Made by a program: the position numbers and the translations under genes. Positions 1,996-42,429 of a stretch of 64,000 nucleotides of DNA are shown piece by piece. Origin of the DNA: Sphyrna mokarran. Taxonomy: Eukaryota. Where the stretch lies: the NCBI GenBank assembly GCA_024679065.1, contig JAGIQG010000006.1:130014001-130078000 (forward strand). Reading direction: 5' to 3'. How positions within the stretch are numbered: position 1 is the stretch's first letter; each line of letters begins with the position of its first letter. Below the pieces are notes generated by a model that saw nothing but the letters and a program-made list of their open reading frames with translations, was not told the origin of the DNA and did no database searches.

Positions 1996-2208
1996 TCAAT
2001 AAGAGGTCTGACAACACCAATTTTAAATCCAACCGATTGATAGTAAACTTGCTAGCTTTCGGCCTTTGTGCCTTGTGATTTGCCTGACGAAGGCACAAAG
2101 GCCGAAAGCTAGCAAGTTTACTATCAATCGGTTGGATTTAAAATTGGTGTTGTCAGACCTCTTACTGAGTTTACCCCAGTCCAACACCGGCATCTCTACG
2201 TCATGACT
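1996..2208 (+). mobile_element. Fold-back element derived from a Penelope-like terminal repeat (family A, copy 1)
   Basis: Perfect 75-bp inverted arms 2000-2074 and 2090-2164 around a 15-nt spacer, plus a one-sided tail CCCCAGTCCAACACCGGCATCTC. Homologous to 10293-10497, 22606-22746 and 41441-41645. Confidence 0.8.
2075..2121 (+). ncRNA. Minimal type I hammerhead ribozyme motif
   Basis: Stem I GUGAUUUGC / GCAAGUUUAC; core CUGACGA (2084-2090) plus extra A; stem II GGC-ACAAAG-GCC; GAA; self-complementary AGCU in place of helix III; predicted cleavage after A2111. Confidence 0.7.
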
Positions 2209-3358
2209 ACTATCAGTGCTGTCTGCATTAAACTTCATCTTGTATTGTCTATTCATCTGCAGTTCTTACCAACCGTTTTGTAATTTCTGAGCTGCCTCTT
2301 CCAAGTCAACTTTCCTTGCTTGCCTGGTACCATTTACAATTCTGACCACCTTGCTTTGAGCTTTTGTACCATGACTATTGATTTTTAACTTGAAATTGTA
2401 GTGATCCAAGTGCTAAACCCTGAGGCATCCCAACCTTTCTGACATAATTCCTTTAGGAACATATGCTGTTTCTTATTTATTCCTAGATTTTATTCTGAAT
2501 CCTCAATTTTGAATTTAATTAATAGTCTTTTTGTAAAGTTTTGTCAAAAGTCTTTTAGAAGGCATTGTTTTTTGGACACCCAGTTCAGTTTCAGCAGAGT
2601 ATTTAATTTGCAAATAATCACCCAGGTCAATTGAAAGTGATCTTTCATTGACGTACAACAGAATTCTTTAATAATCAGATCAGGGAAGATAATAACTTTT
2701 ATATAACAATACTTGTGTGTAGCAGGAATTATTTCATTGATATTGAGTAAACAATTTTAATATTGTATCTGCAGCCAATAGATAGTGAAGAAATAGAGAG
2801 CATAAAGTGATAACTTTGAGGTGTGACAGTAATGTGTGGATGACTGATATTTTTCTGCACGCCTCCTCTGTGTCTCATCTCTGCTCAACACCTTCTCGTA
2901 AAGGACAATTGGGACTGGAAGATTGAACTCATGTTTCACACTGTGGCAGTCTTGCAGGTTGAGGCTGCAATATGTTACAACACATTTGATTAGATGTAAC
3001 TTGTATATAATGTGGAGTAAAGGAGCTTGTTTAAAAGTTTGCATTAATTATGCTTATCACATAAATTGTGTAGCCTGTAAAGCCAAAACAAATGTCATTT
3101 GCGGAAATAATCCAGCCAAATAAACTGTTGTTACTCCATTCATGTGTAGAACAGCAAGCCTTGTATTCAAAACTAGTTTGTCACCTGCTATGGAGAGGCA
3201 TTTTACTAACAAGCAACACATTAACCTCTGCTTGCTTCATTTATGTTTTTATTTAAGTTGTATTTCTCTAACAAGCTGACTCTAACTCTGTGCTCTGCCA
3301 TAAGTTATGAAATTCTTGTGTCTATTGATTGTTTTTGTCCTGGTTATGACAATAACAG

Positions 3359-3492
3359 ATATTGGAGGATGAGCTGAAAGAAACCAGGAATCAGGTGGAA
3401 GGCATGCACAACAAATGTAATGAATTGTCATCCCACCTTGTACATCAGCAGGCAGATCTGACACGAAAGGATGTTGAAGTGACTAAATTCAG
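3359..3492 (+). CDS. CNTLN: Centlein internal coding exon (first in window)
   Basis: Acceptor AATAACAG ends at 3358. Translates ILEDELKETRNQVEGMHNKCNELSSHLVHQQADLTRKDVEVTKF(R), resembling recalled human centlein TFEDNLIEARKEVEVSQSKYNALSLQLSNKQTELIQKDMDITLVR. 134 nt, ends in phase 2 at CAG|GCAAGT, matching the start phase of the next exon. Confidence 0.85.
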
Positions 3493-3544
3493 GCAAGTAC
3501 TTCATACAGAACCCAGAATCGAGTTTGTTCATTGTTGAAAAACA

Positions 3545-3722
3545 GAATACTATGATATCTGAAATACAATGGAAAGTGCTGAAAATACACAACTAGTCTG
3601 ACAACATTTGGAGAGTGAAAGAGTTAACATTTCAGGTTGTTGCACTGTTTTGATGAAAGATATTGACCAATATTGTTAACCTTATTTATCTCCCCATGGA
3701 TGTTAAAATGTTTTCTGATTTG
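3545..3722. mobile_element. Degraded Penelope terminal-repeat fold-back (family B)
   Basis: AGTGCTGAAAATACACAAC...GAGTTAACATTTCAGGT...TGATGAAAG...GTTAACC resembles 11405-11582. Confidence 0.45.
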
Positions 3723-4734
3723 TTCAGTGTTGACTTGGTAACTTCTGCATGCCTGTTAAGATTTTAGTTTATTCAGATAGATTTATGCTGAGTTTAACAT
3801 CTCTTCACAATAATGAAAAAACATAACATAATATGTTTTCATTGTATGTTGTAAATAATTGCTTTGACAATAGAAGGCATTGGTAACTGTTCAGAAATTT
3901 TAGTTGCTGAGTGTTCAGGACCTATACAATTTTCAGATTGACTTAACATTTTAATCACTGTTGAGTTTCACAGAGCAATGGGAACACACAAAGACCTAGG
4001 TTAAAGGTTCAACATGTTCAGATTTGAGCTTTATGTGACAGCATGTAAATCTTCCCTGCGTTAAAGCCATAGGATTAATGCTGCATATTTGAAAAGCTGC
4101 TGAGAAATGGGAAACACGAAAGGGAAAGCTGTAATAACTTGGCTATTTCATTCATTACAGTATGGTCAGATCAGGGGCATTAATTTGTATACAAAAAAGC
4201 TAGCACTTCCTGAGCAGTAGCATTATGTAAATGAATTAAACCTGCAGTCAGATGTGATGAAACTGTCTTGAATAAAATCTATCTATAGACCTTTATCACA
4301 AACATTTTATCCTCCAAATATGACAACCAAAACATTTTTATTGCGTACCTTCTTTTTAAGAAGGTAATAACTGAATATTGCAAAATGCAATGAGAATGAT
4401 GCAGAGATAAATGAGAACATGTATCCATTTGCAGCCGAAGCATATGGGTAATTAAAATTCTCCTTAGAAATGGTGCAGAGCATCACTCCACTCATTGAAG
4501 CTTGATATGGAAATTACTATTGCCATCCTTTTAATGGGGGAGCCATTCCAGGCATTGAAATGCACATGAAACTCACTGGTTGATATTGAAAGCCCTTAAA
4601 ACTCTCTTCCCAGCACTTCACCCCCCCACAAAATTGCGAGTAATGCTAACTTTGGTTAGGGGGTGCGCTCATAGCTTGCTGTAGTGATCTGTGTTAAATC
4701 ATTGAGACATGTTCATAATTTCATTTTAATGATG

Positions 4735-5510
4735 CCTCCAAAGTCAGCATGGTTTTATGAAAGGAAAATCAAATTTGGCAGGTTTATTAGTCTTTTGAGG
4801 ATATAAGTAATCGGGTTGATAAAAAGAAACCTGTAAATGTAGTATATTTGGATTTCCAAAGGCACTCAGTAAGGTGCTACAAAAAAGGTAACATAAAGGC
4901 TCATGGAGTCAGGGATAACTTATTGATGGATATAGGATTGGCTAATAGGCAGGAAATAGAGAGCAGGGTTAAACAGGGCAGTTTCAAGTTGGCACTGTGT
5001 GGCTAGTGAAGTGCTCCTAGTTCCAGGAGCCTCAGCTGTTTATGACTTAGATGAAGAGGTGTGATCTAAGTTTGCTGACGATACAAAATTATGTGGGAAT
5101 GCAAGCTGTGAGGGGGACAGAGACTGCAAAGAAATCTAGACAGGTTAAGTGAATGAGCAACAGCGTGGCAGATTGAATATCATATAGGGAAGTGTGAAAT
5201 TTATTCCATTTGGCAATAAGATTAGAAAAGCAGAATAGTTTTTAAAATGCTAATGTCCACAAATATTTAGTGCCCTTCTACCAAATTAGGAAGACAAATG
5301 GCATGTTGGCCTGTATTGAAAGGGACTGAAATGAAAGAATGAGAAACGCTTGTACATTTGTTGTAGGGTTTTGGTGAGACCACATCTGGAATACAGTTTT
5401 GGCCTTCATATCTAAAGAAGGATCCAGAGGCAGTACAGCAAAGATTCAATAGATTGGCTGTGGGGTGAGAGGATTGTCCTATGGACAAGAGGTTGTGTAA
5501 ATTACCTTAT
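4735..5510 (+). mobile_element. Degraded CR1 LINE RT fragment
   Basis: TATTTGGATTTCCAAAGGCA (YLDFQKA) and AAGTTTGCTGACGATACAAAA (KFADDTK), with many stops and frameshifts. Confidence 0.85.
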
Positions 5511-5675
5511 AGAACATAGAACAATACAGCACAGAACAGGCCCTTCAGCCTTCGATGTTGTGCCGACCAAAATAAAAAGCAATGCCCCTCCAAACTAAAC
5601 CATTCCCTTCTCTTCCATATACTTATCAATTAACCTCTTAAACGCCACCAAACTTGGCGCATCTACAACAGATAC
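5511..5675 (-). mobile_element. CR1 3' end inserted antisense into the older CR1
   Basis: AGAACATAGAACAATACAGCACAGAACAGGCCCTTC tail; the host CR1 resumes near 5680 (TACTCTCTTGAATTTGG). Confidence 0.75.
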
Positions 5676-5969
5676 TTTGATACTCTCTTGAATTTGGATG
5701 AATGTGATGTTATCGCATTAAAACATATGGATGTCTTTTTGCTTAATTGCTGATGCCCCTGCCTCTGAAGCAGAAGTTTGGGGTTCCAGTCCATGGAAAG
5801 TTCATGATGTTCAACAGTTGATAATCAGCCTAATAGTCCTTCCCAATATGCCCCACTCTTCCCCAAAGGGAGAAAAAAGTGTTTGAAGATATGAAACAAA
5901 TGGTTAAAATATACAAGATTCTGAAGGGGCTTAATAGAGTAGGCACAAAAATTTTTTCTCTGGTTGGAA

Positions 5970-7385
5970 AATCATAGAATTGTTACAGCACAGAGGAAGG
6001 CCATTCAACCCATATGTTAATGCTAGCTTATCTAAGGAGCAATTCACATGTGGCCACTACTCTGTTCTTTCTCTTTTTACAGGTGTTTAGAAAATATAAA
6101 AATGTTTATGGCACAGAAGGAGGCTATTCTGTCCAGCCAAAAAAAAAAACAGCCTCCTATTCTAATCCCATTTTCCATCAATTGTTCCATAGCCCTGGAG
6201 GTTATAGGACTTCAAGAACATCTCCAGACATCTTTTAAATGAGTTGAGTTTCTCTTTCTCCTGTTCTTTTACACAGTGAGTTCCAGTCCATTATGAAGAA
6301 CTGGGTGAAAACAATTTTCCTCCTTTCCTCTCTAATTCTAATACCAATGACTTGAAATTGATTCCCCCCCCTGTCACTGACCACTCTGCCAAGGTCTATA
6401 GGCCCTTTCTGGCCCCTATATCCAGATCCCACTCACAACCTTATATATGTCAATAAATCCCCCTGTAATCTCTTCTGTTCCAAGGAAAACAACCCCAGCC
6501 TATTCTGTCTTATATCTGCATTTTTATAGTCTTGGTAACAGCCTCATAAATATCTTCTGCCATCCACTCTTGCACAATTACACCTTTTCTGTAATGAGTG
6601 ACCAGAACTGCACAGAGTACACAAGTTGCAGCCTAACTAGTGTTTTGACTAATTCGAGCTCTTAAATTCTATGCCTTAGCTAATAAATGAAATAATTCAT
6701 ATGCGTTCCTGGTTGCTTCAATGGCCTGACCAACTACATTCAGAGATCTGTGGACATACACCCTATTGCTCCTCACATCCTCTGCACCGGAACCCCACTG
6801 AAAATAGCCTTCCAGTCATAAAAACACCCATCAGCTATTACCCTTTGTTTCCTGCCATTGAGTCAATTTTACACCTGGCTTGCTATATTCTTCTGGATCC
6901 CCATAGATTTTTTTTTAATCAGTCTGCATGTGGGAACTTGTCAATAGTCTTGCTAAATGACCATATAGACTGCACTAGCTTCATCAATCCATCTTGTTAC
7001 CTCCTCAAAAAAATTCAATCAAACTGGCCTGACACAGGTTCCCTATAACAAATCTGTGCTGACTGTCCTTGGTTAATCCATGCCTTTCTAAGTGACAGTT
7101 TATCCTTTACCTCAGAATTGATTCCAGTAATTTGCCATGTACTGAGGTTAGGCTGGCCTGTAATTATTTGGTCTATTCTCTGCTCTGTTTTTAAACAAAG
7201 GTGTAACATTAGTAGTCCTTTCAGTATTCTGGCACCGCACCTTCATCCAATGAGCATTGGGAAGTGATGGTCAGAGCATCTGCTATTTCCTCCCTAGCTT
7301 CTTTGAACAGCTGAGATACATTTCATTTCATCCAGGTCTGGTGATTTATCCCTTTTTAAGGATGTTAATCCCCTTAATATTTCTG
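5970..7385 (-). mobile_element. Old CR1 fragments (minus strand)
   Basis: GACCAGAACTGCACAGAGTACAC (reverse of YCVQFW) and TAGGCTGGCCTGTAATT (reverse of NYRPVSL-like). Confidence 0.7.
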
Positions 7386-7414
7386 TTGACTTGATGTTTG
7401 TTGCATTCAGTATT

Positions 7415-7722
7415 TCACAGTCCAGTCTGGAACATGGGCACAGTCTTCAGGATTAAGGGTCGATTGTTTAAAACTGAAATGAGGCAAAATTACATTATTT
7501 TGACGGTTATGAATAACTGGGATTCGTTACCGCAGAGGGAGGTGGATGCTACATTGTTGAACGTACTTAAGGCTGGCAGACAGATTTTCGATCTCTCCAG
7601 AAACCGAGGCATATTGGAGCAGGCAGGAAAGTGGAGTTTGAGTCAAACATAATCGTCTTAACTGGTAGGGCAGGCTTGGTGCGACATGTGTTCTGCTCCT
7701 CCTTTTTCTTAAATTTCTATGT
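7415..7722 (+). mobile_element. CR1 3' end
   Basis: GGGCACAGTCTTCAGGATTAAGGGTCGATTGTTTAAAACTGAAATGAGG, followed by a CR1-type 3' UTR ending TTTCTATGTTTC. Confidence 0.7.
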
Positions 7723-8794
7723 TTCAAAGTTCATCATTTTTCTAATTGTGTGTTGAAATTGGGCAAACAGATTTCAAACTTCTTAGCACAGTATAGGATA
7801 ATATATTTACTTCTCTGTCACTGAGCTTCCGTTTTATAGTTTATTGAATCTGTTCATGCCAACAAATAAGCCATTTGCATTGAATCACTTCTTGCAAGTC
7901 TAAACGACCAAGGCTGCCTTTTAATACAGAGGAAGTTGTGAGTTAGTCAGTGGGATGTAAGAGGACTACAGCTTTTCTTTGGTCATCTGGCTGGTATTTA
8001 CTTGGGACAGGCAAAAATGCTGAAACTGATTTATTCTCTCGTCATGGGAGAAGTGTATTGGCTGTTCATTGTTTCTCAAAACTGAAGTGAATTTAAGTAG
8101 AGCAATTGTGCTGGAAATCAGTGCCATAGTGATGAGAAATTTCAGTCTCTTTCAAAACTGTCTGTATGTTTCTGTATCTTAATGTGCTTGAGACAGATGG
8201 AATAAATTGGACCAAGTGAACGTTTTCCTGTTCCAGGAACGTGTTGCATTTCCAAATTATTTTCAATATTAAAGATCAGACTTCAGAAATAATTTCCAGT
8301 ATATATTGCTTGGTAAGAAATGTGATGTTATGCCATAAGCTTTTACAACACTGTAAGCATACAAATAATAAGCTTTTTGTAGAAAGATAGTGATCCAGCT
8401 AGTTGGCAGTTTACCTATTCAACATCTGTTTTCACTTGACCATGACAATGTTTTACTGGACCTGATCCAGGGAATCCTGTGTAAGTGGGATAAGAATTCT
8501 GGAAGTATGTTTCCTTCAAATAAAAACTGTGTCATAGTTGAAGACTGTTAATTTTGATGGTCTGGTTGAAATGCAGTTGTCTCATTTATCATATTGTTCC
8601 ATATAAACAAGAAGAGTATACAGGGACTTAATTGATACATTTCCCGCAAAAAGAAAATGTTCTTATTAACCATATCTTCACTAACTGTCATTTACTGTCA
8701 ATCCTAAGAAAATTGGGCACTGGTTGCTTTACATAAAGCGCATGAACATACTTATTTCCTGGTATCTAAGCCAGATTATTTGCCTCAACCAAAA

Positions 8795-8976
8795 TTGCTA
8801 AAAGCAGATTGTCTGGTCGTTATTTTAATTGCTGTTTGTGGGATCTTACTGTGCACAACTGGGCTGCCAAGTCTCTACATTACAGCAGTGACTACACTTT
8901 AATAACTACTTAATTGGCTGTTGGACACCTTTAAACATCACACGGTTGTGAAAGATACTATACAAATGCACAGTCC
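8795..8976 (+). mobile_element. DeuSINE-like (SacSINE1/AmnSINE-related) 3' part
   Basis: ATTGCTGTTTGTGGGATCTTACTGTGCAC...ATTACAGCAGTGACTACACTT...GTGAAAGATACTATACAAATGCA; reverse-complement homolog at 33045-33450. Confidence 0.65.
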
Positions 8977-10292
8977 TCCCCTCCTCTAAAGAGAATGATG
9001 ATTTATCTGGTAAGGACCCATCAGCGCAAATAAAGGATGTTTTTCTAATATATAAATTTACAACATATACACACTGAGGAATATTTGAGAAAATCTATAC
9101 ATGTGTGTATAAAAATATGGAGATCACTGAGGGTTTGAATGTGGAATGTGAAAAAGATACATATGGTTGCAACAGAATGTAAAACTTTAATTATGCTGCC
9201 ATCTACAGAAACCATATACTGTAATCTCCAAGCTTATGAATGATGTACGTTTAGTCACCTGTAAGTGGGAGAATTTTACATGGTTCATGCACCATGTAGA
9301 ATATGACAGAGGCTGTGAAATCTTGCAGATGATGAGGCAATTTTTTAATTGGACTTTGTTTAAAAACGCCAGTATTTTGTATTCCTGCTTTATTTCAGCA
9401 AGAATATGGTATTTACAAAAGCAGAAAAAATTGATGGATTTTTGATAGTCAATTATAAAATCATCTTTGCATTAAATAGTAGTTTTCTTTTTCTCCACGT
9501 GGAGCAAGGATGCTGATGTTTAAATGCAAATACTTGAATGTTTATTTATTTGACTCTGCTGTTGTATTTGTCTGGGGGTGGTGGAGAAAATTCTGTTTCC
9601 ATTTAGGAGCTTGCAAAGAAAAGGATGCATATGTTTTACTGCAAATTGCAATTGATTTTGTGATGTGTTGCATTATGCAAGCAGTAATAATATTTATCAA
9701 ATGAACAATCTTAACTCATCCCTTTATTCTGCTAAAACATGTACTCATAGTTTATCATATCCATGTTTTTTGAGCACAAGATGAAAATCAAAGAAAATAA
9801 AAATTGGAAATTGTATTTTTTAGAATAGAGTGTTTTTTCCAATGACATTTCTTTTCGTTTGAGGCATGTATTGTTTTTGATGGTTACTGAAGTGATCTTG
9901 TAGTCTGGAGGTACAAATGGTTTGCATTTTGTTGAAATGTGTCAAATTCAACAAAGCAATAGGATTCATGTGACACATTTGTTACATAAGTTAATGAAAG
10001 TTACAAATATATTTTAAAATAAACACATCTTCCACAACATTGCTGCAAGTCAGCAATCAGGGAATTCCTTGTTCTGCAATAAAATTATTTGTAAAGGCAT
10101 TTGAAAAATAATGACGACCTTCTGGTCTACACAGCCCATCCCATACAATTGAGATACCTTGTGAGTCACAGCATGAATGCTTTAACCCACCCAGAACCCT
10201 CCACTTCAGGCAGGGAAAATCCCAAGGCAAAGCCAGGAAAGAAATCTGCAAAATTTCCTTCTGAGCTTCTGGCAGTCGGAGATAGACATAAT

Positions 10293-10497
10293 ATAGAGAT
10301 GCCGGTGTTGGACTGGGGTAAACTCAGTAAGAGGTCTGACAACACCAATTTTAAATCAAACCGATTTATTTGATAGTAAACTTGCTAGCTTTCGGCCTTT
10401 GTAGCCTTCGAAGGCTACAAAGGCCGAAAGCTAGCAAGTTTACTATCAAATAAATCAATTGGATTTAAAATTGGTGTTGTCAGACCTCTTACTGAGT
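10293..10497 (-). mobile_element. Fold-back Penelope terminal-repeat element (family A, copy 2; spacerless palindrome)
   Basis: 176-bp palindrome 10322-10497 centred on CCTTC|GAAGG with 3 mismatched pairs; tail AGAGATGCCGGTGTTGGACTGGGG on the left; near-identical to copy 1. Confidence 0.8.
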
Positions 10498-11041
10498 CGA
10501 CGATAGTCCAGGTGACCACTTTTGCCCTGAATTCTTCAAGTGTCCACCTTTTCGTTGGAAGGATTACCAGCCAATCCAGAACCAGGTCCAGTTCCAATTT
10601 GAAAGAATTCAAAAAAATCTATATCAATTGGCAGCCTGTTCCACTGACCCCACTGTTTTCTAGACAAGGAGGAACTATCCAATATCCAACCTAGTCCTCT
10701 CCCTATTTAATGCATAAATTTAACCCCTGGTCTTCACAATCTGTTCAAATGGAACAAGTTGTCAACTTGGGATTTATTCCCATCACTTTATATACCTCAA
10801 TTAGTTTATTCTCAAGTGTAAGCCTCCCTAAAATGTAGAGTCCCAATTCTTTGAGCCTGTCTTAATAATTACGATGCTTTATTGGAATTGGACCAGTGGT
10901 TCATCTTTTCTAAAGTCTCATTGTCATCCAGTTTTTGATGAGACAAGAACTGACCACACTGGCCTTTAATTTTATATTTATTTGATTCATTTGGCTTGAG
11001 ATTTTGTGTACTATTATTAAAGCCAACAATGCAAAACATTG

Positions 11042-11385
11042 AGGCAGTGGCTTTGTGGTAATGTCACTGGACTTGTAATCCAGAAGCCCAGATAAATGTT
11101 CTGAGGATATGGATCCAAATCCTTCCACAGCAACTGGTGGAATTTAAATTCAGCTAACAAAATGTAGAATTAAAAGCTAGTCTCTCTAATAATGACCATG
11201 AAATTATTGTTGATTGTCATAAAAACACACCTGTTCACTAAGATTCTTTAGAAAAGGAAATCTGCCATCCTTACCAGGTCTGGTCTATATGTGACTCCAG
11301 ACTCTCAATAATGTGGTGAACTGTTAACTGCTACTCAGTCCATAGGCAATTAGGGATAGCCAATTTGCCTTGCCATCCCATGCAA
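11042..11385 (+). mobile_element. tRNA-headed SINE
   Basis: GGCAGTGGCTTTGTGGTAATGTCACTGGACTTGTAATCCAGA head; related copies near 44975-45240 (+), 30900-31120 (-) and 12700-12890 (-). Confidence 0.6.
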
Positions 11386-11404
11386 GAGGCCACAACAATA
11401 GCAG

Positions 11405-11582
11405 CAGCAAAACAAGATGCTGGAAAGTCTCAGTGGATCTGACTGCATCTGTAGAGAGAGAACAGAGCCAACATTTCAGGTCTGGATGACCCTTCATCAG
11501 AGCCAACATCAAACCTGCTGAGATTTTCCAGCATTTTGTGTTTTTGTTTCAGATTCTAGTATCTGCAGCATTTTACTTTTAT
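11405..11582. mobile_element. Penelope terminal-repeat fold-back (family B) with decayed hammerhead core on the minus strand
   Basis: Inverted arms ATGCTGGAAAGTCTCAG / CTGAGATTTTCCAGCAT; the minus strand reads CUGAUGA-A-GGGUC-AUCCA-GACCU-GAAAUGUU (11500 to 11470). Confidence 0.7.
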
Positions 11583-13955: not shown

Positions 13956-14142
13956 GTAAGTGGGGCAATTCTTTTAAGTGAAACAAATTTTAAAAGGTTT
14001 AAAATTACAAGTTACTTTGACAAACCATGTGGTAGTTTTTTTTATTTTCTGGCAATGGGGTTAATCAGGTGGACTGGGTCACCTGGCTTGTTATAAGACC
14101 TATGTCTGGCTTCCGTTCTCCTAATGACCTGCATGGTGTAGT

Positions 14143-14416
14143 GGGGTGGCATGGTGGCACAGTGGTTAGCACTGCTGCCTCTCAACACGAGGGATCATTC
14201 CTGGCTTGGGTCATTGTCTATGTAAAGTTTGCATGCTCTGTTCTCCCCGTGTCTGTGTGGGTTTCCTCCAGATGCTCGGGTTTCCTCCCACAGTCTGAAA
14301 TACGTGCTGTTTAGGTACATTGACCTGAACTGGCACTGGACTGTGGCGACAAGGAGAATTTCACAGTAACTTCATTGCAGTATTAATGTAAGCCTTATGT
14401 GTAACGAATAAACTTT
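14143..14416 (+). mobile_element. HE1/V-SINE-like tRNA-derived SINE
   Basis: GGTGGCATGGTGGCACAGTGGTTAGCACTGCTGCCTC head, central TTCTCCCCGTGTCTGTGTGGGTTTCCTCC, tail TTTCACAGTAACTTCATTGCAG. Confidence 0.85.
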
Positions 14417-15666
14417 CAACCTTTCCATTCACTTTGTAGTAAATTTACTCTAATCTGTTTGCAAAATCAAGCAATTAAACTTCCAAATTGATAATTTTGT
14501 AAAAATACAATTTATCTATTAAACAGCTGACTTAAATGCTTATTTATTGATGCTAAATTAAATCATCATTTATTTGAGATCAGTCTGAGGAGTCGAACTT
14601 TAGTATGTTTTTTAAGAGGCAAAGTAACATTGTTTGTATCCCTTTAAGAAGAAAAGGTGAATGGTTTTATTCAGCCGTGTAGTGGTTTTACTAGAAAGGG
14701 AATGAGTGATGTAGAGAGTATGTAAAAGTCTTCTCTCCAACTTCTCTAAAAGTTTCCAAAATTGCCTGAAGCAAAATCTTGAATCATCCAGACATTGGCA
14801 GGTTTATATTTATGGGATTGTCCATGCACCATGGGCCAGGCTAACCTGGGGCAATGTTTCTAGGGAAACCTGTGGAAAGAATTCTACCTAAAATTTTCTG
14901 ATATTGTACAGCCATTGTATAAAATATAGGCTCCAAGAGCAAAAACCTCATTCTTCTTCTCCAAATATCGTAAAAAGTTGTTGCAGGTTATATATTCTGT
15001 TATATGTTATAGATATATTATATATATGATATAGTCTGTATATACATATTATTGTTTTGCCTTTATTGAACTTTATTGTTGTGGTGACTTTAATAGCGAT
15101 TAAAATTAAGCTGGGTATATAATTGGTGTTGCATCTGATCTTGCTAGTTTCTTTTAGGTGGGATAGGACTAGATGTCTGATGATCATGAAAGATGCTATA
15201 TAAATGCAAATTAATTTTTCTTTGACCTCCCATCTGTTACTTATTTAAAATAGAGTTGTGCCTGGGCTCTGGGCGCTGTGTTTGTGCCCCCAGCAGTGTG
15301 TCTGTCCCTTTATTTTAGTATTTAACCCACTGGCAGACTCTGAAGAAATACTGTTCTTCTCTCCAACAGAATTTCTGTCTGTCTCTTTTATCCTGTCACC
15401 TTTTGTTGCTTTCTATTTCTCACCTGCTGTTTGAAATTTAGTCTGATTTTCCTTCTCTTCAGAGTCATTCATTTTTGGAATATTGGCTCTATTCTCCCTC
15501 CACAGATGCTTTCAGACCTGTTGCGATTTTCCAGCATTTACTGTTTTTCTGTTGGGTGTTGATCATTTCTCCCAATACTGAATTATTTCAGGTTATATTC
15601 CGCTATGTCAATGTAAATATTCTTTTTGACTCTATTCTATGCTGATAATATGTATTTTTATGTCAG

Positions 15667-16300: not shown

Positions 16301-17820
16301 GGATGCCTTAATAATTATTCATCAAAATTTGCTGGATTCTGGGGAAGTGCTGGAAGATTGGAAAACAGTTAATGTTGCACCGCTGTTTAAAAAAAGCTAG
16401 TAGACAAAAGGCAGGGAATTATAGGCTGGTTAGTTTAATGTCCGTAGTTGGAAAAATGCTAGAATCTGTCTCAAAGAAGAAATAATGAGGCACCTACAAA
16501 AGAACGGTTTAATTAAGCAGACACAGCACGGATTCGCTAAGGGGAAGTCGTGTTTAATGAATTTATTGGATTTCTATAAGGATGTGACTAGTGTGGAAGA
16601 CAGGGGAACCAGTGGATATGGTGTGTTTTTGGATTTCCAAAAGGCGTTTGATAAGGCACCTCACAAAAGGTTGCTGCAAAAGATTAGGATGCAGGGAGTT
16701 GGGAGTAAGGTGTTAACATGGATAGATTGGTTGTCTAACAGAAAGCAGAGAGTTGGAATCAATGGGTACTATTCTGGTTGGCAGCTGGTGACTAGCGGAG
16801 TGCCCTAGGGATTGATGCTGGGGCCTCAACTGTTTACCATTTACATAGATGATCTAGAGGAGGGGACTGAGTGTAGGGTGACAAAATTTGCTGATGACAT
16901 AAAGATGAGTGGAAAAGCAAATTATGTGGAAGGCGCGGAAAATCTGCAGAGAGATCTGGATAGGTTGAATGAGTGGGCGAGGACCTGGCAGATGGAGGAT
17001 AATGTTAGCAAATGTGAGGTTATCCACTTTGATAGAAATAATAGTAGAAGGGATTATTATTTAAAAGGTGAAAAGCTGCAGCATGCTATGGTGCAGAGGG
17101 ATCTGGGGGTCCTTGTGCACGAATCGCAAAAACCCAGTTGGCAGGTGCAGCAAGTGATCAAGAAGGCGAATGGAATGATGGCCTTTATAGCGAAGGGGAT
17201 AGAATGTAAAAGCAGGGAGGTCTTGCTGCAATTGTACACAGTACTGGTGAGGCAGCAACTTCACTGTGTGAAGTTTTGGTTGCCGCATTTGCAGAAGGAT
17301 ATATTGGCCTGGGAGGGAGTACAGAGAAGATTCACTAGGTTGATACTGGAGATGAGGGGGTTAGCCTATGAAGAGAGATTGAATAGATTGGATCTGTACT
17401 CATTGGAGTTTAGAAGGCTGAGGGGGGATCTTATAGAGGCATATAAGATAATGAAGGGGATATATAGGGTAAAGGTAGAGAGATTCTTCCTGCTTAGAAA
17501 GGATAACAGGACTAGAGGGCACAGCCTCAAAATAAGAGAGTGGGGGGGGGGAGTTTAGATCAGAGTTGAGGAATTTCTTCACTGAAAGGGTAGTGAGTCT
17601 CTGGAATTCTCTGTCCATTGAAGTGGTGGAGGCTACCTCATTGAATATACTTTAGTCACAGGTAGATAGGTTTCTGATAGACAAGGGAATTAAGGGTTAT
17701 GGGGAGAAAGCGGGAAAGTGATTCTGAACCACTGCAGATCAGCCATGATCTTATTGAATGGCGGGGCAGGCTCGAAGGGCTAGATGGTGTACTCCTGCTC
17801 CTATTTCTTATGTTCTTATC
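16301..17820 (+). mobile_element. 5'-truncated CR1 LINE, RT domain with stops and frameshifts
   Basis: ORFs 16485-16808 and 16812-17558: QHGFAKGKSC, FLDFQKAFDK, SGVP*G, KFADDIK, WEGVQRRFTRLI, RRLRGDLIE; tail TTCTTATGTTCTTAT. Confidence 0.95.
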
Positions 17821-18235
17821 AGTTCTAGTTTCACCCGCCAGTGAAAACAACCTCCCTGCTTCAATCTTATCTATTTTCTTCATAATTTTATATATTTCTG
17901 TAAGATTCCCCTCCAATTCTTCTAAACTATAATGAATATTGTCCCACTCTACTCAGTCTCTCTGTACCCTCTCTATATATTCTTTCTCAAGAATATATAT
18001 TCTTGAGAATATTCAAGAATATATATTCTTGAATATATTCTTTCTCAAATAAGAAGACTAAAACTGTATACAGTACTCCAAGTGTGGTCTCACCACCTTA
18101 TACAGCTGCAACATAACCTCGTTTTTAAGCTCCATCCCTCTAGCAATGAAGGACAAAATTCCATTTGCCTTCTTAATTATCCACTGAAGTTTTTTGTGAT
18201 TCATGCACAAGGACACCCAGGTCCTTCTGTACTTG
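17821..18235 (-). mobile_element. Continuation of the minus-strand CR1 host
   Basis: ORF 17656-17916 (-) begins with GNLTEIYKIMKKIDKIEAGRLF; AAACTGTATACAGTACTCCAAGTGTGG is the reverse of PHLEYCIQF. Confidence 0.8.
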
Positions 18236-18799
18236 CTGTTACTGAGGACCTCACATCAGGAGCTGTTTAACAAAATTCTGCCATATATGTCTAGGACTAC
18301 TTATTTGCCACCAACCTAATATTGAAAAGATCCATAATTGTGACTTGTTTTAAATGTACATGTTTAGGTTATTTTATGAATTACTTCCAGGCAGGCAGAG
18401 ATTTTCCAACTTGTTCATAAACTGTGACTCCAGATCCATAATAATGTGGTTGGCTCTAAATTACCCTCTGAAATTATTTAGTAAGCCGTCAATTCAAGGA
18501 CAATTAGGGATTGGCAACCATTTCTGGCCTTGACGGTGATGGTAATATCTCATCCATGAAAGAATAAAAAAAAAATCCAAGGTGCCATCCTTTTTCGGTA
18601 TATCTGATGTATCTTTATGTATTTCGACAGCTCCACATTCCAGTGCACATATAGATTAGTTATCCCTGCAGCTGAAATTTCAAAGTTGGCAGTGCAATGG
18701 TGCCATCAGAATCTCAGGGAAAATATGTAAACTTACTATTTAAAAATGCAAGCTTTCTGATTTGGTTGTTGGATTTGTGCTCATGACTAAACCAAAGAG

Positions 18800-19700
18800 T
18801 AAAGTGGAAAAGCAAATTGCGTAGAGGGTGTGGAGAACCTGCAGAAGGATCTGGATAGGTTGAGTGAGTGGGTGAGGACCTGGCAGATGGAATATAATGT
18901 TAGCAAATGTGAGGTTATCCACTTTGATAGGAATAATGGGAGGAAGAATTACTATTTAAATGGTGAAAAGCTGCAACATGCGATGGTGCAGAGAGATCTG
19001 GGGGTCCTTGTGCACGAATCGCAAAAACACAGTTTGTAGGTGCAGCAGGTGATCAAGAAGGCGAATTCTAGGGGGATAGAATATAAAAGTAGGGAGGTAT
19101 TTTTGCAGCTGTATAGGGTACTGGTGAGGCTACAGTTGGAGTACTGTGTGCAGTTTTGGTCACTGCATTCGAGGAAGGATATATTAGCCTTGGAGGGAGT
19201 GCAGATAAGGTTCACTAGGCTGATACTAGAGATGAGGCGTTGGATTATGAGGAGAGACTAAGTAGGCTAGGTTTGTACTCATTGGAGTTTAGAAGACTGA
19301 GAGGGGATCTTATTATAGAGACATATAAGATAATGAAGGGGATGGATAGAGTACAGGTTGTGAGACTTTTCCCACTTAACAAAGATAGCAGGACTAGAGG
19401 TCATAGCCTCAAGATTGGGGGGAGGGCGGTTCAGATCAGAGTTGAGGAGGAATTTCTTCACATAAAGAGTGGTGAATCTTTGGAATTCTCTGCTGAAGTG
19501 GTGGAGGCTTCCTCGCTGAATATATTTAAGTCGAGTGGATAGGTTTTTGATTGACAAGAGAATTAAGGGTTTTGGGGAGAAAGCGGGAAAGTGATACTGA
19601 ACCACTGCAGATCAGCCATGATCTTATTGAATGGCGGGGCAGGCTCGAGGGGCTGGATGGCCGACTCCTGCTCCGATTTCTTATGTTCTTATATTCTTAT
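18800..19700 (+). mobile_element. 5'-truncated CR1 LINE
   Basis: ENLQKDLDRLSEWVRTWQMEYNVSKCEVIHF, LEYCVQFWS, RRLRGDL; tail (TTCTTATG)n. Confidence 0.95.
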
Positions 19701-22201: not shown

Positions 22202-22605
22202 AATATTAACATTAGTTCTCCAGAGTAAATTTGATCATTCACTACCATATAGTGCGATTGACACTGCATTGAGGAGCATTTTTTTGTTAAATTTGCCTGA
22301 ACAAATTTGATTCTCATGCTTATTTTCTTTCGCCTAATTGAGAACGTATGCACCATATAGACGTACCAACAATTGGTTGGATCATTTTTCATGTGTTTGG
22401 GAGAGCTGCCGAAACCAGGTGTGAGGGTGTTCATGAGCAGATACAGAAGGTGTGGTGCCTGCTTTATGACACTGCTTTGAGATTCGCCTGTCCGGTGGTG
22501 CAAACAGTGTATCTGCTCCCTTCAGGAACTGCTGCAGTCTAGCAAGTAGTTGTCATCAGAAAGATAGGTAAGTGGAGCTGGGGGGCAGGACTATGTCCCC
22601 TCCTC

Positions 22606-22746
22606 CTTTGGAGCGCTGTTGCTTTATCAGGACTCACCTGATGAAGGAGCAGTGCTCCGAAAGCTTATGCTACCAAATAAACCTGTTGGACTTTAAACTG
22701 GTATTACTGTGCCCACCCCAGTCCAACACTGGCATCTCCATATCAT
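22606..22746 (+). mobile_element. Penelope terminal-repeat element (family A variant) with hammerhead core
   Basis: CTGATGA (22638-22644), A, GGAGC-AGT-GCTCC, GAAAGCTT; preceded by a short imperfect antisense arm (CTTTGGAGCGCTG...ATCAGG); same CCCCAGTCCAACAC tail; flanked by TCCCCTCCT direct repeats at 22596 and 22746. Confidence 0.75.
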
Positions 22747-35944: not shown

Positions 35945-36600
35945 AAGAACATAAGAAATAAGTGCAGGGGTAGGCCATTTAGCGCCTCGAGCCTGCCCCA
36001 CTATTCAATAACATCTTGGCTGATCTGAAATGGATCAGTTCCACTTTCCCGCTTTCTCCCCATAAGCCTTAATTTCCTTTTCTATCAGAAATCTATCTAC
36101 CTGACTTAAATATATTCAGCAAGGTAGCCTCCACCACTTCAACAGGCAGAGAATTCCAAAGATTCACCACCCTTTGAGTGAAGAAAGTCCTCCTGAACTC
36201 TGATCTAAACCTCCACCCTTTATTTTGAGGCTGTGCCCTCTAGACCTGCTATCCTTTCTAAGCAGGAAGAATCTCTCCTCTTCCCTATCCATTCTGTTCA
36301 TTATCTTATATGTCTCAATAAGATCCCCCCTCAGCCTTCTAAACTCCAACGAGTACAAACCTAGTCTATTCAATCCCCTCACAGGCTAACCACCTCATCT
36401 TCGGTCTCAGCCTAGTAAACCTTCTCTGCACCCCCTCCAAGGCCAATATATCCTTCCTAGAATGTGGTGACCAAAACTGCACACAGTACTCCAGCTGCAG
36501 CCTCAGCAGTGTCCTATACAGCCGCAAAAGTATCTCCCTACTTTTATATTCTGTCCCCCTAGCTATAAAGGCCAACATTGCATTAGCCTTCTTGATCACC
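35945..36600 (-). mobile_element. 5'-truncated CR1 inserted in the ERV
   Basis: VIKKANAMLAFIARG...LEYCVQFWSPH...RRLRGDLIETYK; tail AAGAACATAAGAAATA. Confidence 0.92.
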
Positions 36601-37215
36601 ATAATTATGACCTTATATGACCCATTCCATTTTGGTGCAAACCCTGGTTTTTCAGGTAATATTTTTATCAAGATGTGACTTCCCGCTATTGGGATGTCAG
36701 GGAGCATTTCAAGCACTCACTGTGCATCTCTTTCCTCCTGATTATCCTTTACTAATTTAAGCATCACTTTTAGTTGGGCGCTTAGTTGCAAAACGTATCA
36801 TTTAATTTTGTCTTTTAGTGTACCTACATTGGTCCCACCTGTTATGATACTTTCTGTAATTGCATTGCCTTTCCTGTCATTAGTTCATAAGGGGTTAATC
36901 CAGTTGTCCAGTTTGTGGTGGCATTAACCTCATTAATATAGTAGGTAATACTTCTGTCCATGTTTTTCCTGAAATCTGCATGGCCTTGGCCGGGGCATTT
37001 TTAAGGGTTCTGTTCATGCACTCCATCATTCCAGAACTCTGCAGGTGGTAAGGGGTGGATTTTTTTTTATTCTCATCAGTTGGCACTATTTTTACTACCT
37101 TCCTGGTGAAGTGCCTCCCTTGATCCTAATCAATCTGTATGGCTGTTCCCCATCAAAGGATTACCACCTCCACCAATATTCTAGCCACTGAGGTAGCAGT
37201 ACAATTTCTGATTCA
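36601..37215 (-). mobile_element. Decayed retroviral integrase (pol 3' end)
   Basis: RNCTATSVARILVEVVIL*WGTAIQID*DQGRHFTRKVV; YHLQSSGMMECMNRTLK (compare YHPQSSG.VERMNRTLK); WTEVLPTILMRL; PKWNGSYKVII (GPY/F-like). Confidence 0.85.
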
Positions 37216-37364
37216 ATTTCTACTCACCAGGTGACTGTCTTAGTATTTCCCGCATTTTTTATTTTGATTTCTTTCTCACATTTCCTTGCAGTTGGTTATA
37301 CAGTAGCAGTGCTAAAGTCTGGGGAGGTGGTGGGATAGTGATATTGACACTGGACTTACTCAGG

Positions 37365-37628
37365 CCTTATCCCCACAACTCCATGCATTTATCATGGCCT
37401 AATCCACCTAACTGACACATCTTTGGCTACTAAGGGGCAACTTATCATGGCCAATCTGGCTAACCTGCACATCTTCGAACTGTGGGGAAACTGGAACACT
37501 TGAAGGAAACCCACGCAGACATCGGGAGAATATGCAAACTCTGCACAGATGATCACTCCAGTCTGGAATTGAACCTGAATCCCTGGCACTGTGAAGCAGC
37601 AGTGCTAATCACTGTGCCACCATGCCGC
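37365..37628 (-). mobile_element. HE1/V-SINE-like SINE
   Basis: GGAAACCCACGCAGACATCGGGAGAATATGCAAACTC...CAGCAGTGCTAATCACTGTGCCACCATGCCGC. Confidence 0.85.
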
Positions 37629-38165
37629 ACCCTCTTCACCAAGAGGGTGGGGGTGTCGAGTTTAGTGGTGGAGGCAGAAACCCTCAACAACTAATGGAAA
37701 AGGAATCTGGATCTATATCTAAAGTGCTTAACCTACAAGAATGCACATTGGCTGCTGGAAGGTGGGAGACTAGTATTTTATCTTTGACTGGCGCAGGCAC
37801 GACCCAGCCTTTTTCTACATCGTATATTTTCTACTGTTCGAATTGTTTCCCACTGCACTTGAGTTTTCATTCTTCCTTCTTCATACAGATTTAGTTCCTT
37901 GTCACAGGAATCCTGATTGGACTGAATAGGTAGACCTCATGTGAGCCATAGAATATACTTGTCTTAGAAGTATTGTGTTGTGCATATCTTTGGGGCCAGT
38001 TTTGTTCTGGTGTGATGATGATGAGGCTAAAATTGAAAGACTAATGCTCGATATTGAATATTGGTTGGTAAACTGACCATGGAGCAACAGAATCCAGCTT
38101 GATTCTGCCCTTGTCCAATGCCCACACTGTTCCTTCACTGTCGCTGGACCAAAATCCTGGAACAC

Positions 38166-39929
38166 GAGGTGGCATGGTGGCAGAGCAGTTAGCACTGCTG
38201 CCTCATAGCGCCAGGGTTCAATTCCTGGCTTGGGTCATTCTCTTTACAAAGTTTGTATATTCTCCCTGTGTCTGCGTTGGCTTCTGCAGGGTGTTCCGGC
38301 TTCTTCCCACAGTCTGAAAGATGTGCTGGTTAGGTGCGTTGGCTATATTAAATTCTCCCTCAGTGTACCCAAACAAAGAAAATTACAGCACAGGAACAGG
38401 TCCTTCGGCCACCCAAGCCTACACCGACCACGCTGCTTGACTTAACTAAAACCCCCCCACACTTCAGGGACCATATCCCTCTATTCCCATCCTATTCATG
38501 TATTTGTCAACATGCCCCTTAAAACTCTCTATTGTATCCATTTCCACGACTTCCTCCGGCAACGAGTTCCAGGCACCCACTGCTCTCCGTGTAAGAAAAA
38601 AAAATCTGCCTCATACATCTCCGTTAAACCTTGCTCTCGCACCTTAAACCTATGCCCCCTGGTAATTGACTTCCACCCTGGGAAAAAGCTTCTGACTATC
38701 CTCTCTGTCCATGCCTTTCATAATCTTGTAGACTTCTATCAGGCCTCTCCTCAACTCCCCCATCATTCCAGTGAGAACAGAGCAAGTTTTTCCAATCTCT
38801 CCTTGTAGCCAATGCCTTCAACACCAGGCAACAAGCTGGTAAATCTTTTCTGCATCCTCTCCAAAGTTTCCACATCCTTCTGGTAGTGCAGCGAACCAAA
38901 ATTGAACACTATATTCCTTCCAAGTGTGGCCTGACTAAAGTTCTGTGAAGCTGCAACATGACTTGCCAATTTTTAAACTTCAAACTTTAGCCGGTAAAGG
39001 CAAGCATGCCATGTGCCTTCTTGACTGTCTTCTCTACCTGCATTGCCACTTTCAATGACCTGTGTATCTGTACAACCAGATCCCTTTGCCTATCAATACT
39101 CTTAAGGGTTCTGCCATTTACTGCATATTTCCTATCAGACCTTCCAAAATGCATTACTTCACATTTGTTCGGATTAAACTCCATCTGCCATCTCTCCGCC
39201 CAAGTCTCCAACCGATCTGTATCCTGCTGTATCCTCTAAGTGTGTGCTGGCATTTGAGGAATTATGGCATTGCCCATCCTTACAACAGCATGTCCCCTTC
39301 ATCAGTAACCTTGTGACTGTGAGGGCAGGCAGTGGGGAGGGGGAGTACCTCTTGAGGACATGATTCCGGAGTTGAAAGGGTTGGCTTGTGAGGAGAGACT
39401 GAGTAGACTGGAGCTATACTCATATCAGGATTTGGGCTGGTATCTGTGGGAGTTTGCGCATTTGCCCCGTGCTTGCATGGGTTTTCTCCAGGTGCTCCGG
39501 TTTTCTCCCACACCCCAAAGATGTGCTGTCAGGCTGATTGGCAAAACAAATTGACCCTAAATTGTCTCCCCAATTTGGTTCCAATGCAGATTTCCATAAA
39601 CATAGACAAGAGTCATAGGTGGAAGTGGGAATGTTAAAATGGTGGTGCGGGCTCGTTGGGCTGAAGAGCTTGTTTCCCGTGCTGTGTTGTTCTTTGTTCT
39701 TTGATGGGCCTCATCGTATCTGCAAATCCACCAACCTTTGTATCATCTGCAAATTTACTAACCAATCCAGTTACATTTTCCTCCAAATATTTATATGTAT
39801 TACAAACAGCAAAGGTTCCAACACTGACCCCTGATCAGGCACTGGAATGTGGTGACTAGGGGAATTTCGTAGTAATTTCATTGCAGTGTTAATGTAAGCC
39901 TACTTGTGACATTAATGAATAAATAAACT
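38166..39929. mobile_element. Nested cluster: SINE (+) split by CR1 (-), itself interrupted by CR1/SINE pieces
   Basis: SINE head 38166-38372 ends AGTGTACCCAAACA; CR1 (-) spans 38373-39237 and 39720-39834; the SINE tail resumes at 39835 (CAGGCACTGGAATGTGGTGACTAGGGG...AATAAATAAACT). Confidence 0.8.
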
Positions 39930-41440
39930 AAGCACATTGGGTGTAGCTACCCCATAAGCGCTATTGCATTTCAAGAAAGCAGTTCACCATCATCTTCTCA
40001 AGGGAGTTGGGGTTGGACAATAAATTCTGGTCTTGCCAGTGATGTCCACATTCCACGAATGAATAAAAATATATACATTTCAGATTCAAAGCTGATCTGA
40101 AATACAGGAATGTTTTTATTTAAACGATGATGGCAATGTGTTCTAAATGTCCACATTCTTCATGTGAATCTTGTAAAAAGATCCAAATGCTTGAAGAGTA
40201 ATTGAAGCTATGATGACTAAAGTGTTGTCAAATCTGTGAACTACCTCTTTTCACATATACTCCCATGAAAGAAACTGCTCATTAATTTTGGGTGAGAGAT
40301 TTATTGGGTGGGATTTTTCAGCCGCTCATGCTGGAAGGATCTATTGGTCCTGCTGACGATGACCTCACCATCCCCCCCTTCCCCCGGCCGCAGGTTCCCT
40401 GGCAGTGGAGGTATCAACAATGGGAAACCCCGTTGACAGTGGCAGGACTGGAAGAACCCACTGGGGGCCAATGGAGGTCACCTCTGCTGCCACAAAAATG
40501 ACATGAGAAATTGAAAATCATTGACTTCAGAATTGGGAAAATGAAAAGAAATACCAAACTTGTGTGGAAGCTTTGTTAGAGTTGGGGATTTTAACCTTTT
40601 TGCTTTTGAATCTCTGGTGTTGTAGAAATTTTATAGGCTCTCTGAAACACAGCACAGGTATTTTTGCTGTGTACTGTTAATTGCACAATTAAGCAAACAT
40701 ATATTTATTACATAATTTGAAACTTGTCTTTACTGAATAAGATTTTTGTCAAGAAATCAAGATATCTTCAACATGTGCATAGAAATGACATGTTCAATTT
40801 TCATTCAAGCTTGGTTATGCTTGAGCTTGGAGACTGTTGCTGAGATTGGTCGATTACCACTTAAACTGATAGAGTGCTGAGGAGGCTGTTGGAATCGACA
40901 GATGATCCTGCTCTTGGTTCTGCATTTGTTTGTTATTAATGATCTGAGTGAATATGTCTCCTGAAGCTCGATGCCATCTCCTAACAACATGATGTTAGAC
41001 CGATGGCCACAAGGCTCTTGGACAATGTGGTAGTTTCTGGTTCCTCTAGTCTGGGGCCAGGAAGTTGAGGTCTGGAATGCACTGCCCTGAGAGTGTGGTG
41101 GAGGCAAGTTCAATCAAAGAATTCAAAAAGAAACTGGAATTATCTGAAAAGCAATACCTTGGAAGGTTACAGAGGGAACATGCAGAAATGGCACTAAAGT
41201 AAATTGCTCATTGGGAGAGCCAGTGCAGACATAATGGGCTGAATGGCCTCCTTCTTTGCAATAAAAATTGTGTGATTCTGATATCACTTGGTGATTAGGG
41301 GCAGAAGTGTGCCTGAAGAGTGAAATCTTTGGCAATTAGCTTAATTTAAATGGCATAGACAGGGAGTGACAAGAAAATTTTGAAATCTGCATGTAGATCC
41401 ATGTGGGGTTCAGATCCCTGGTTAAGAATTCCTATGTAGC

Positions 41441-41645
41441 CTAACAACACCAGGTTAAAGTCCAACCAGTTTATTTGATAGTAATCCACAAGCTTTCAGA
41501 AATGCTGTTCCTTCGTCAGGTGTGTGGAAGGAACAATGTTTCTGAAAGCTTATAGGATTACTATCAAGTAAACCTGTTGGATTTTAACCTGGTGTTGTGA
41601 GACTTCTTACTGTGTTTACTCCAGTCCAATGCCAGAATCTCTACA
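41441..41645. mobile_element. Fold-back Penelope terminal-repeat element (family A variant) with 14-bp TSD
   Basis: Imperfect inverted arms ACAACACCAGGTTAAAGTCCAAC... / ...GTTGGATTTTAACCTGGTGTTGT; minus-strand CCTGACGAAGGAACAGCATTTCTGAAAGCTTG; TTAAGAATTCCTAT repeated at 41422-41435 and 41646-41659. Confidence 0.8.
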
Positions 41646-42429
41646 TTAAGAATTCCTATATCAGGCCAAACATAGATTATTGTGCACAATTCTGGTGGTC
41701 TTGCTACAAAAAGAATGTGAAGGTGTTGAAAATGCACTAAAGGATTTAAGAAGATGGGAGGGGAGCAAGCAGTCAAAAACAAGGACTATTTGTTAAAGAT
41801 AGTCACAGATAAACTCAACATGAAATTCAGGAGTAATTTCTTCACTCGAGAGAGGTGAAAATGTGGAATACTCTACCACTTGGTGTGGCACAGATGCATT
41901 GGATGGGAAGTTAGACAAGTGTATGAGGGGAAAAAGGAATAGAAGGACATGCTGATGGTGTGAGATGATATATGATGGGAGGAATCTCATGTTGAGCATA
42001 TACAGCAGCATTGATAAATGGGCTTAATGGCCTATTTCGGTGCTGTAACTTTTATGCAATCATCACAAAAAGTCTTGCATTTACATTACACAACACCTTA
42101 AATGTCACAAAACTTTCCATAATGCTTGAGGTGGTGGTGGTGGAGTGATATTGTCATTGGACAATTAATCCACGTTTTATCACAAGTAACTCTTCAATTG
42201 CAGATAATAAAAATAGAACAAAACTTACTCCAACTTCTAAATCAAAGAAACATCATTACTTGAGGCCATGCCCAGGGCCACTCCAAACTCCCCACAATTG
42301 CAAACAAGTTCTTATTCATAGTGAGTAAGCTGGTCAGTTGACTATTATATCCTTTTATACTGTCTATGCCATTTAAATTAAGCCAATTTAATGCTAATTG
42401 CCAAAGATTTCACTATTCAGGATTATATC

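Follow-up and report, generated by a model that had tools for sequence, protein, structure and literature searches.

Four short fold-back units dispersed over a 64-kb stretch of Sphyrna mokarran DNA (contig JAGIQG010000006.1, positions 130,014,001 to 130,078,000; the whole of this stretch is hereafter the window) appear to be insertion relics of a Penelope-like retroelement (PLE), a reading whose probability we put at roughly 0.75; each may have formed when two complementary DNAs (cDNAs) that had stopped near the core of a hammerhead ribozyme motif were joined head to head. It is very probable that the units represent extremely 5'-truncated insertions of an endonuclease-bearing (EN+) PLE and that each hairpin was formed anew at its own insertion. 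A Penelope origin had been proposed in a first-pass annotation of the window, and it is now supported by the head-to-head arm, the one-sided tail, the target-site duplications, the hammerhead motif and an indirect link, through a metagenomic locus, to a PLE-type protein.

Four head-to-head units of one family

With the copies as queries, blastn recovered copies 1–4 as the only homologous loci in the window, and a profile built from them returned seven pieces, all from these four copies, plus one weak match (E 0.32), in agreement with the positions first annotated. The units measure 141–210 nt and share one layout, in which a tail-bearing end and an inverted arm of 27–91 nt without the tail meet head to head (Table 1). 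The common architecture proposed initially thus stands as far as the partial arm and the tail-bearing copy are concerned (4/4), but the arm of copy 3 is just 27 nt long and copy 2 is reversed, its tail lying on the minus strand. The tail-bearing part of copy 1 may continue slightly beyond its listed end, as far as about 2214. The tail copies of units 1 and 2 are alike at 110 of 114 positions (96.5%), and the other five pairs at 74–80%.

Fold-backs of 79 nt (99%), 101 nt (92%) and 55+25 nt (85–88%) were delineated by a repeat finder in copies 1, 2 and 4, respectively. Each arm could be aligned to its own tail copy, with 78/79 matches in copy 1, 80/83 in copy 2, 67/78 in copy 4 and 21/27 in copy 3, and this range of divergence (1%, 4%, 14% and 22%) points to separate insertion events over a long time. 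For the short arm of copy 3, 21 or more matches are reached by 24 of 12,740 window positions, the fold-backs themselves among these. The arms carry the variants of their own tail copies: in copy 1 both arms have a 5-nt gap, and in copy 2 both have an extra base. The one-sided tail could be measured in three of the four copies, at 37 nt in copy 1 and, counted by eye, about 39 nt in copies 2 and 4.

As first noted, the copies are devoid of coding sequence: no open reading frame (ORF) of at least 120 aa lies within them, save a 135-aa stop-to-stop frame that enters the arm of copy 1 and has no Pfam match. The first conserved ATG of the family is found at the tail end (as in the metagenomic locus L032, at +121; see below). 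The tail pattern had no matches in viral contigs and none in metagenome contigs.

The direct repeats that had been noticed around two copies are clear in copy 4 (14/14 nt) and copy 3 (9/9 nt), scores of at least 9 being reached by 2 of 400 random flanking pairs. The candidate repeat of copy 2 does not exceed chance, since 100 of the 400 random pairs score 6 or more, and a flanking repeat was looked for around copy 1 without one being found.

Table 1. Features of the window (ends are given relative to C3 of the CUGANGA core)
Feature	Position	Strand	Remarks
Copy 1 arm, inverted, tail-less	1996..2074	(-)	5' end +6 from C3; 3' end 37 nt short of tail end
Copy 1 tail-bearing copy	2075..2205	(+)	5' end -9 at most, first bases possibly filler
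Copy 1 minimal type I hammerhead, predicted	2077..2118	(+)	only intact one of the four copies
Copy 1 tail	2169..2205	(+)	37 nt; not on arm
Copy 2 candidate flanking repeat	10274-10285, 10495-10506		10/12 nt; score 6
Copy 2 tail-bearing copy	10286..10409	(-)	start +4/+5; lacks catalytic core
Copy 2 tail-less arm	10410..10494	(+)	zero-spacer palindrome, its centre being the CG common to both arms
Copy 3 duplication	22596-22604 (left), 22746-22754 (right)		9/9 nt; score 9
Copy 3 short decayed inverted arm	22605..22631	(-)	-1 to about +25; 21/27 matches
Copy 3 tail-bearing copy	22632..22745	(+)	divergent subfamily; minimal hammerhead, core 22638-22644
Copy 4 duplication	41422..41435 (left), 41646-41659 (right)		14/14 nt; score 14
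Copy 4 inverted tail-less arm	41436..41526	(-)	core 41519-41513; 5' end -7; helix II decayed
Copy 4 tail-bearing copy	41527..41645	(+)	start +5, lacks core; tail of about 39 nt
Decayed solo end, second family	3540-3669	(-)	starts past core
Fifth hairpin, second PLE-type family	11405-11575		tail-less arm (-) with decayed core, tail copy (+)
Decayed solo end, second family	15445-15575	(+)	starts past core
Relic of second PLE family	48798..49722		RT-thumb/GIY-YIG, decayed, minus strand, about 49600-48798; own 3' end missing
Short end of second family	49608-49722	(+)	begins at degenerate hammerhead core; head to head with the relic

A minimal hammerhead and its predicted cut

The hammerhead call rests on the description of minimal hammerheads in PMC4209133, where minimal type I motifs are described for PLE terminal repeats (papers are cited here by accession and for the portions available). 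In copy 1, helix I pairs 2077-2083 with 2112-2118 (7 pairs including 2 G-U) and is followed by the core (2084-2090), one extra base, a 3-bp helix II (2092-2103) and GAAA (2104-2107), whereas helix III is replaced by a palindromic AGCU, the predicted cut falling after 2111. This arrangement parallels that of the metazoan PLE hammerheads of PMC4209133 in the CUGANGA core, the extra base before helix II, G10.1-C11.1 and the palindromic 15.2-16.2 without helix III; compared with the typical sizes given there, helix II of copy 1 is shorter (3 bp) and helix I longer (7 bp). The motif of copy 3 is near-intact, with a 5-bp helix II and one helix I mismatch beside the cut. Helix I displays compensatory changes between copies 1 and 4.

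The original label ‘hammerhead-bearing’ therefore suits copies 1, 3 and 4 but not copy 2, in which CUGANGA is present on neither arm; in copy 4 it resides on the inverted arm rather than on the tail-bearing copy, and helix II no longer folds. Judged from their sequences, copies 2 and 4 are catalytically broken. In Rfam, no match reached the gathering score anywhere in the 64 kb, and copies 1 and 3 produced chance hairpin matches only (E up to 10). When copy 1 is folded whole, a duplex of -143 kcal/mol is predicted, in which helix II, GAAA and the cut site pair with the arm; according to this model, a hairpin transcript would have its ribozyme buried in the duplex, and the copies, lacking an ORF, are dead. 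Pairs of motifs on opposite strands were noted in PMC4209133.

Turn points lie at the ribozyme core

Turn points were measured with C3 of CUGANGA as zero, and negative values mark outer bounds, given that part of the spacer may be filler. The tail copy and the arm begin, respectively, at -9 and +6 in copy 1, +4 and +4 in copy 2, -6 and -1 in copy 3, and +5 and -7 in copy 4. Accordingly, the clustering at the ribozyme that had been pointed out from the outset was borne out: all eight 5' ends fall at -9 to +6 from the core, which places them 22-37 nt before the predicted cut, itself 28-30 nt after C3. The cut is spanned by all four tail copies, with sequence on both sides. Since every 5' end lies upstream of the cut and the tail copies run across it, a cleaved RNA was not the template; cleavage at the predicted site would have cost either the core or the tail. 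The junctions are different in each of the four copies, and even copies 1 and 2, for all their similarity, differ. Under even truncation, the chance that four tail-copy ends fall within 14 nt is 0.011, 0.0014 or 0.0001 for 100, 200 or 400 nt, respectively.

An outside check was made on 12 loci from one unrelated assembly which have a helix II sequence in common, were picked by eye and include core-intact copies only; a GIY-YIG-like piece is found upstream at one of them (L079, E 2e-5). In seven of the 12, the common sequence is lost no more than about 14 nt from the core, and in one, an unclear case, at about 29 nt (P 0.007 for the seven versus a constant stop rate, with a cut-off set after the data had been seen). 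In four of these seven, an inverted piece adjoins at -4 to -18 with a score well above those of 100 shuffles; the arms concerned start at -5, -4, +74 and +112. A further hammerhead family, of seven loci, has a mixed upstream pattern.

Two features of such loci deserve description in their own right. At L079, L086 and L096, the common upstream sequence is T-rich and has AG two bases before the core, resembling a splice acceptor; if the AG is one, the hairpin copies, which keep it, would derive from unspliced RNA. At L028 (1501-1582), two intact minimal hammerheads lie head to head with a short duplicated piece of the core between them.

The family at large and an indirect link to a PLE-type protein

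Contigs from 4 of 19 sequencing runs aligned to 2061-2240 (18,433, 7,575, 5,736 and 2,555 contigs); the run with 18,433, X1, is possibly the source of the window, and summed depths were not taken as copy numbers. None of the 19 runs listed is an RNA run, which carries no information on expression. Among the loose ends listed, the best-supported fall at 2203-2206 in each of the four runs and pass over into unrelated flanking sequence, which argues that the 3' end of the family is fixed. In X1, 648 contigs leave the element at 2203-2205 with a flank agreement of 0.33-0.34, and the same was observed in three other organisms. Run contigs break inside repeats. One X1 contig contains a direct tandem joint of 2169 to 2095, where the tail-less end enters the core via a common CTGA, a possible route to partial tandems. 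A depth ramp in X1, with an extrapolated edge near 2077, was not counted, as it fits either a common stop or the filler bases of copy 1.

The hammerhead pattern was found at 96 metagenome loci, 37 of which have helices I and II of at least 3 pairs. Pfam GIY-YIG matches were obtained in 3 of 13 frames scanned, above the cut-off at L007 and L070 and below it at L014, each time upstream of the motif. [quoted passage not shown]

Origin of the hairpins

The layout could be produced by a mechanism with two nicks and two start sites on uncleaved RNA, the odds for and against which we consider evenly poised. The GIY-YIG/reverse transcriptase (RT) protein would nick both target strands, 9-14 nt apart, and each nick would prime cDNA on the uncleaved element RNA, the outer start site giving rise to the tail-bearing copy and the inner one, 37-39 nt upstream, to the tail-less arm. 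Having crossed the silent hammerhead, both cDNAs would terminate at a preferred 5' limit on the helix I edge or a few bases before it, whereupon the two cDNA ends would be joined head to head and repair would leave the duplication. We suggest tentatively, at slightly less than even odds, that the limit corresponds, most simply, to the 5' end of the RNA and that RT initiates in a start region about 120 nt from it; such an end could be a start site or the stop of an exonuclease at the folded, protein-bound ribozyme. RT stalling on structure would be expected near +35, at the entry to helix I. The components have parallels in Anolis, where a purified PLE protein, a predicted dimer, cleaves both strands and extends them, with RT initiating at two internal sites that delimit the tail and with uncleaved RNA as the main substrate (PMC11167929). 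The hairpins might even be footprints of an undescribed PLE step common to distant animals, in which a dimer primes both nicked strands on uncleaved RNA ending at the helix I edge, the ribozyme fold marking or protecting the template 5' end without cutting, and the RNA of about 125 nt comprising hammerhead and tail is perhaps itself a minimal template; in this extended form, the proposal is speculative and, on balance, doubtful.

Several observations weigh against the reading of the units as PLE insertions made from two cDNAs that stop at the core. The clustering was observed in a sample of four insertions, and the ends of a second family in the window start over about 60 nt. In the outside family, 4 of the 12 loci continue upstream for 73-99 nt or more, and in another hammerhead family all six loci have at least 104 nt of upstream sequence in common and no inverted piece. 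The single opposite-strand joint in the run contigs connects 2095 with 2163 (+11 versus +79). The arm of copy 3 stops near +25, far short of the inner start site, the duplication is missing in the youngest copy, copy 1, and that of copy 2 is within chance, while arm-to-arm recombination that flipped the spacer at a later time could account for the layout of copy 4. The parent RT/GIY-YIG element of the family was not found in the material covered. The protein link is indirect, as L032 is represented by one contig of low coverage and seemingly chimeric make-up, and a search of the 96 loci with a profile restricted to the sequence after the motif gave nothing below E 2, L032 going undetected. Finally, in D. 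virilis, the start site is located not at the hammerhead but upstream of an intron, the end of which meets helix I (PMC2377424, PMC4209133); this lends no direct support to a template beginning there. Given this mixed evidence across families, the regular feature is that one arm often stops at the 5' edge of the hammerhead, the other arm being freer; the core stop is not universal.

One alternative is self-priming, whereby one cDNA stops near the hammerhead, folds back and gets copied, a route suggested for rotifer PLEs on the strength of their palindromic junctions (PMC3846280). The spacers of copies 1 and 3 can be read as part of the tail copy, as a fold-back predicts, and each arm has variants in common with its own tail copy. 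Nevertheless, we deem self-priming rather unlikely, considering that copy 2 has no loop, its arms overlapping by a self-complementary CG, that the tail-less arm carries extra 5' sequence in copy 4 and in the second-family hairpin at 11405-11575, and that a fold-back on helix I or II would, by its coordinates, begin the arm near +35 or +20 and not at -7 to +6. Copy 4 also has extra 3' sequence on its tail copy, and with the extras thus on opposite members, neither arm seems to have been copied from the other; the loopless overlap of copy 2 and the extra 5' bases of copy 4 favour two cDNAs over self-priming. Hairpins would likewise form anew if a short, non-coding RNA of about 125 nt, comprising hammerhead and tail and produced by solo pseudo-long terminal repeat (pLTR) loci, served as a dedicated template, in the manner of a passenger resembling short interspersed elements (SINEs). 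The near-constant unit length in 4/4 copies, the 18,433 family contigs in X1 and the existence of non-autonomous PLE derivatives (bioRxiv 2021.04.23.441226; bioRxiv 10.64898/2026.07.22.740005) speak for such an RNA, which we still consider quite unlikely: the lack of an Rfam match gives no sign of an internal promoter or RNA-gene head, three diverged subfamilies spanning a wide range of ages behave alike, as expected of a property of the autonomous element, and the relic at 48798-49722 joins a core-starting arm to ORF sequence.

The remaining explanations are less compatible with the positions of the ends. Ordinary random 5' truncation with inversion, the clustering then being a chance of the small sample or a product of reader selection, draws on there being four insertions only, on the variation of second-family ends over about 60 nt and on the scattered arm starts of the outside family; it is improbable in view of the low chance of such clustering (at most 0.011), the lack in the window of any shorter or longer family member beyond the E 0.32 match and the 7/12 outside loci that stop within about 14 nt, for all that the cut-off behind P 0.007 is post hoc. 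The first-pass annotation had also envisaged a unit that moves by itself, similar to miniature inverted-repeat transposable elements (MITEs) or retrozymes. Despite the similar sizes (141-210 nt) and the enclosure of whole units within duplications in two of the four cases, the copying of hairpins from a master is very improbable: the junction differs in every copy, the core lies on different arms, the ends are unequal, copy 2 has no core, the predicted duplex of copy 1 takes up helix II, GAAA and the cut site, and there is neither a tandem array nor a canonical hammerhead. Scarcely credible, lastly, is the accompanying suggestion that ribozyme self-cleavage sets the end of the template. Apart from the proximity of the turn points to the ribozyme, the only hint of a cleaved template is the copy 3 arm (22605-22631), which ends 3-4 nt before the predicted cut, a single decayed case that may be due to chance. 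Against this stand the position of all eight 5' ends upstream of the cut, the passage of every tail copy through it and the in vitro results of PMC11167929, in which inactive ribozyme mutants leave insertion unchanged and the cut coincides with neither the beginning nor the end of any RNA read.

Other features of the window and of the metagenome loci

The window consists of repeat-rich animal DNA with a GC content of 0.34-0.46, and RVT_1 was detected in 3 and GIY-YIG in none of the 13 long ORFs scanned. A second PLE family is represented by a relic with a protein match at 49548-48798 (tblastn E 7e-8; Pfam GIY-YIG E 0.007, below the curated cut-off), by the fifth hairpin, whose tail copy starts about 50 nt past the core and around which a flanking repeat was looked for and none found, and by decayed solo ends (Table 1). 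Relics of long interspersed elements with RVT_1 matches, common 3' ends and some inverted pairs, which we take to be CR1, occupy 16809-19700, 35940-36600, 42342-46890 and 50121-52130. Dispersed SINE-like families (D15, D19 and D20) are found at 14241-14404, 38210-39910 and 53986-55340. Among the metagenome loci, L070 (2-2824) and L049 contain a tandem PLE junction, consisting of a GIY-YIG end, about 730 nt, a hammerhead and a long open frame which starts 97 nt after the core and has no Pfam match.

Comparison with known systems

The units resemble non-LTR (animal) retrozymes (PMC7229834; bioRxiv 10.64898/2026.07.22.740005) in being non-coding, in their type I hammerhead and in their relationship to PLE pLTRs, but those elements form head-to-tail tandems of 150-450 bp units with canonical hammerheads and circular RNA, whereas the window units are solitary and head to head, with minimal or broken motifs, the short direct tandem joint being confined to one run contig. 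LTR retrozymes have a type III hammerhead, direct LTRs and a 4-bp duplication, as opposed to the type I topology, inverted arms and 9-14-nt duplications seen here. Nor do the units conform to MITEs, given the tail on one side only, arms of 27-91 nt and four different junctions. In L1 twin priming, each of the two nicked strands primes a cDNA, and a 5' part ends up inverted; the window cDNAs, by contrast, would start at fixed internal sites near the same end, yielding a near-symmetric hairpin rather than an inversion-deletion.

The origin of PLE inverted repeats and the role of weakly active ribozymes are questions stated in the literature (PMC11167929, PMC4209133, PMC3846280, bioRxiv 2021.04.23.441226). 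In a genome rich in such hairpins, a simple count would separate the joining of two cDNAs from fold-back priming and locate the template 5' end. There is, in addition, a risk for annotation, as the hairpins can be mistaken for MITEs or microRNA precursors. Our literature search, which covered few subscription papers, returned no placing of PLE junctions at the hammerhead and no twin priming for PLEs, although supplementary figures of PMC11167929 and PMC4209133 may bear on this; inverted insertions are not discussed in the available portion of PMC11167929, nor are hairpins mentioned in that of PMC5753468, which deals with an ancient Penelope-derived repeat in humans.

The fit is closest with PLEs themselves, insertions of which are known to comprise an inverted 5'-truncated pLTR and a one-sided tail of 30-40 nt (PMC3846280; bioRxiv 2021.04.23.441226; PMC8969392). 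An inverted truncated arm is present in all four units (most weakly in copy 3), a one-ended tail of this length in three and a duplication in two, alongside the minimal hammerhead; the single ORF of EN+ PLEs, encoding a telomerase-like RT with a GIY-YIG endonuclease at its C terminus, is absent from the four copies, as expected of truncated ends. With Poseidon PAc of Anolis (PMC11167929), the family has in common a tail delimited by two sites that follow the core at roughly 80-120 nt and an uncleaved template, but the PAc ORF starts inside the hammerhead, whereas the first conserved ATG of the window family lies at the tail end. Taken together, the units are PLE relics of a described class and not a new class of non-autonomous element: they share with the complex insertions of EN+ PLEs (Penelope/Poseidon, Neptune) the head-to-head arm, the one-ended tail of 37-39 nt, the duplications of 9-14 nt and the terminal hammerhead, and differ from these in retaining only the last about 120 nt on either arm and in the junction at the hammerhead core (4/4), a placement absent from the available portions of PMC3846280 and bioRxiv 2021.04.23.441226, which makes the core stop the one modestly new point.

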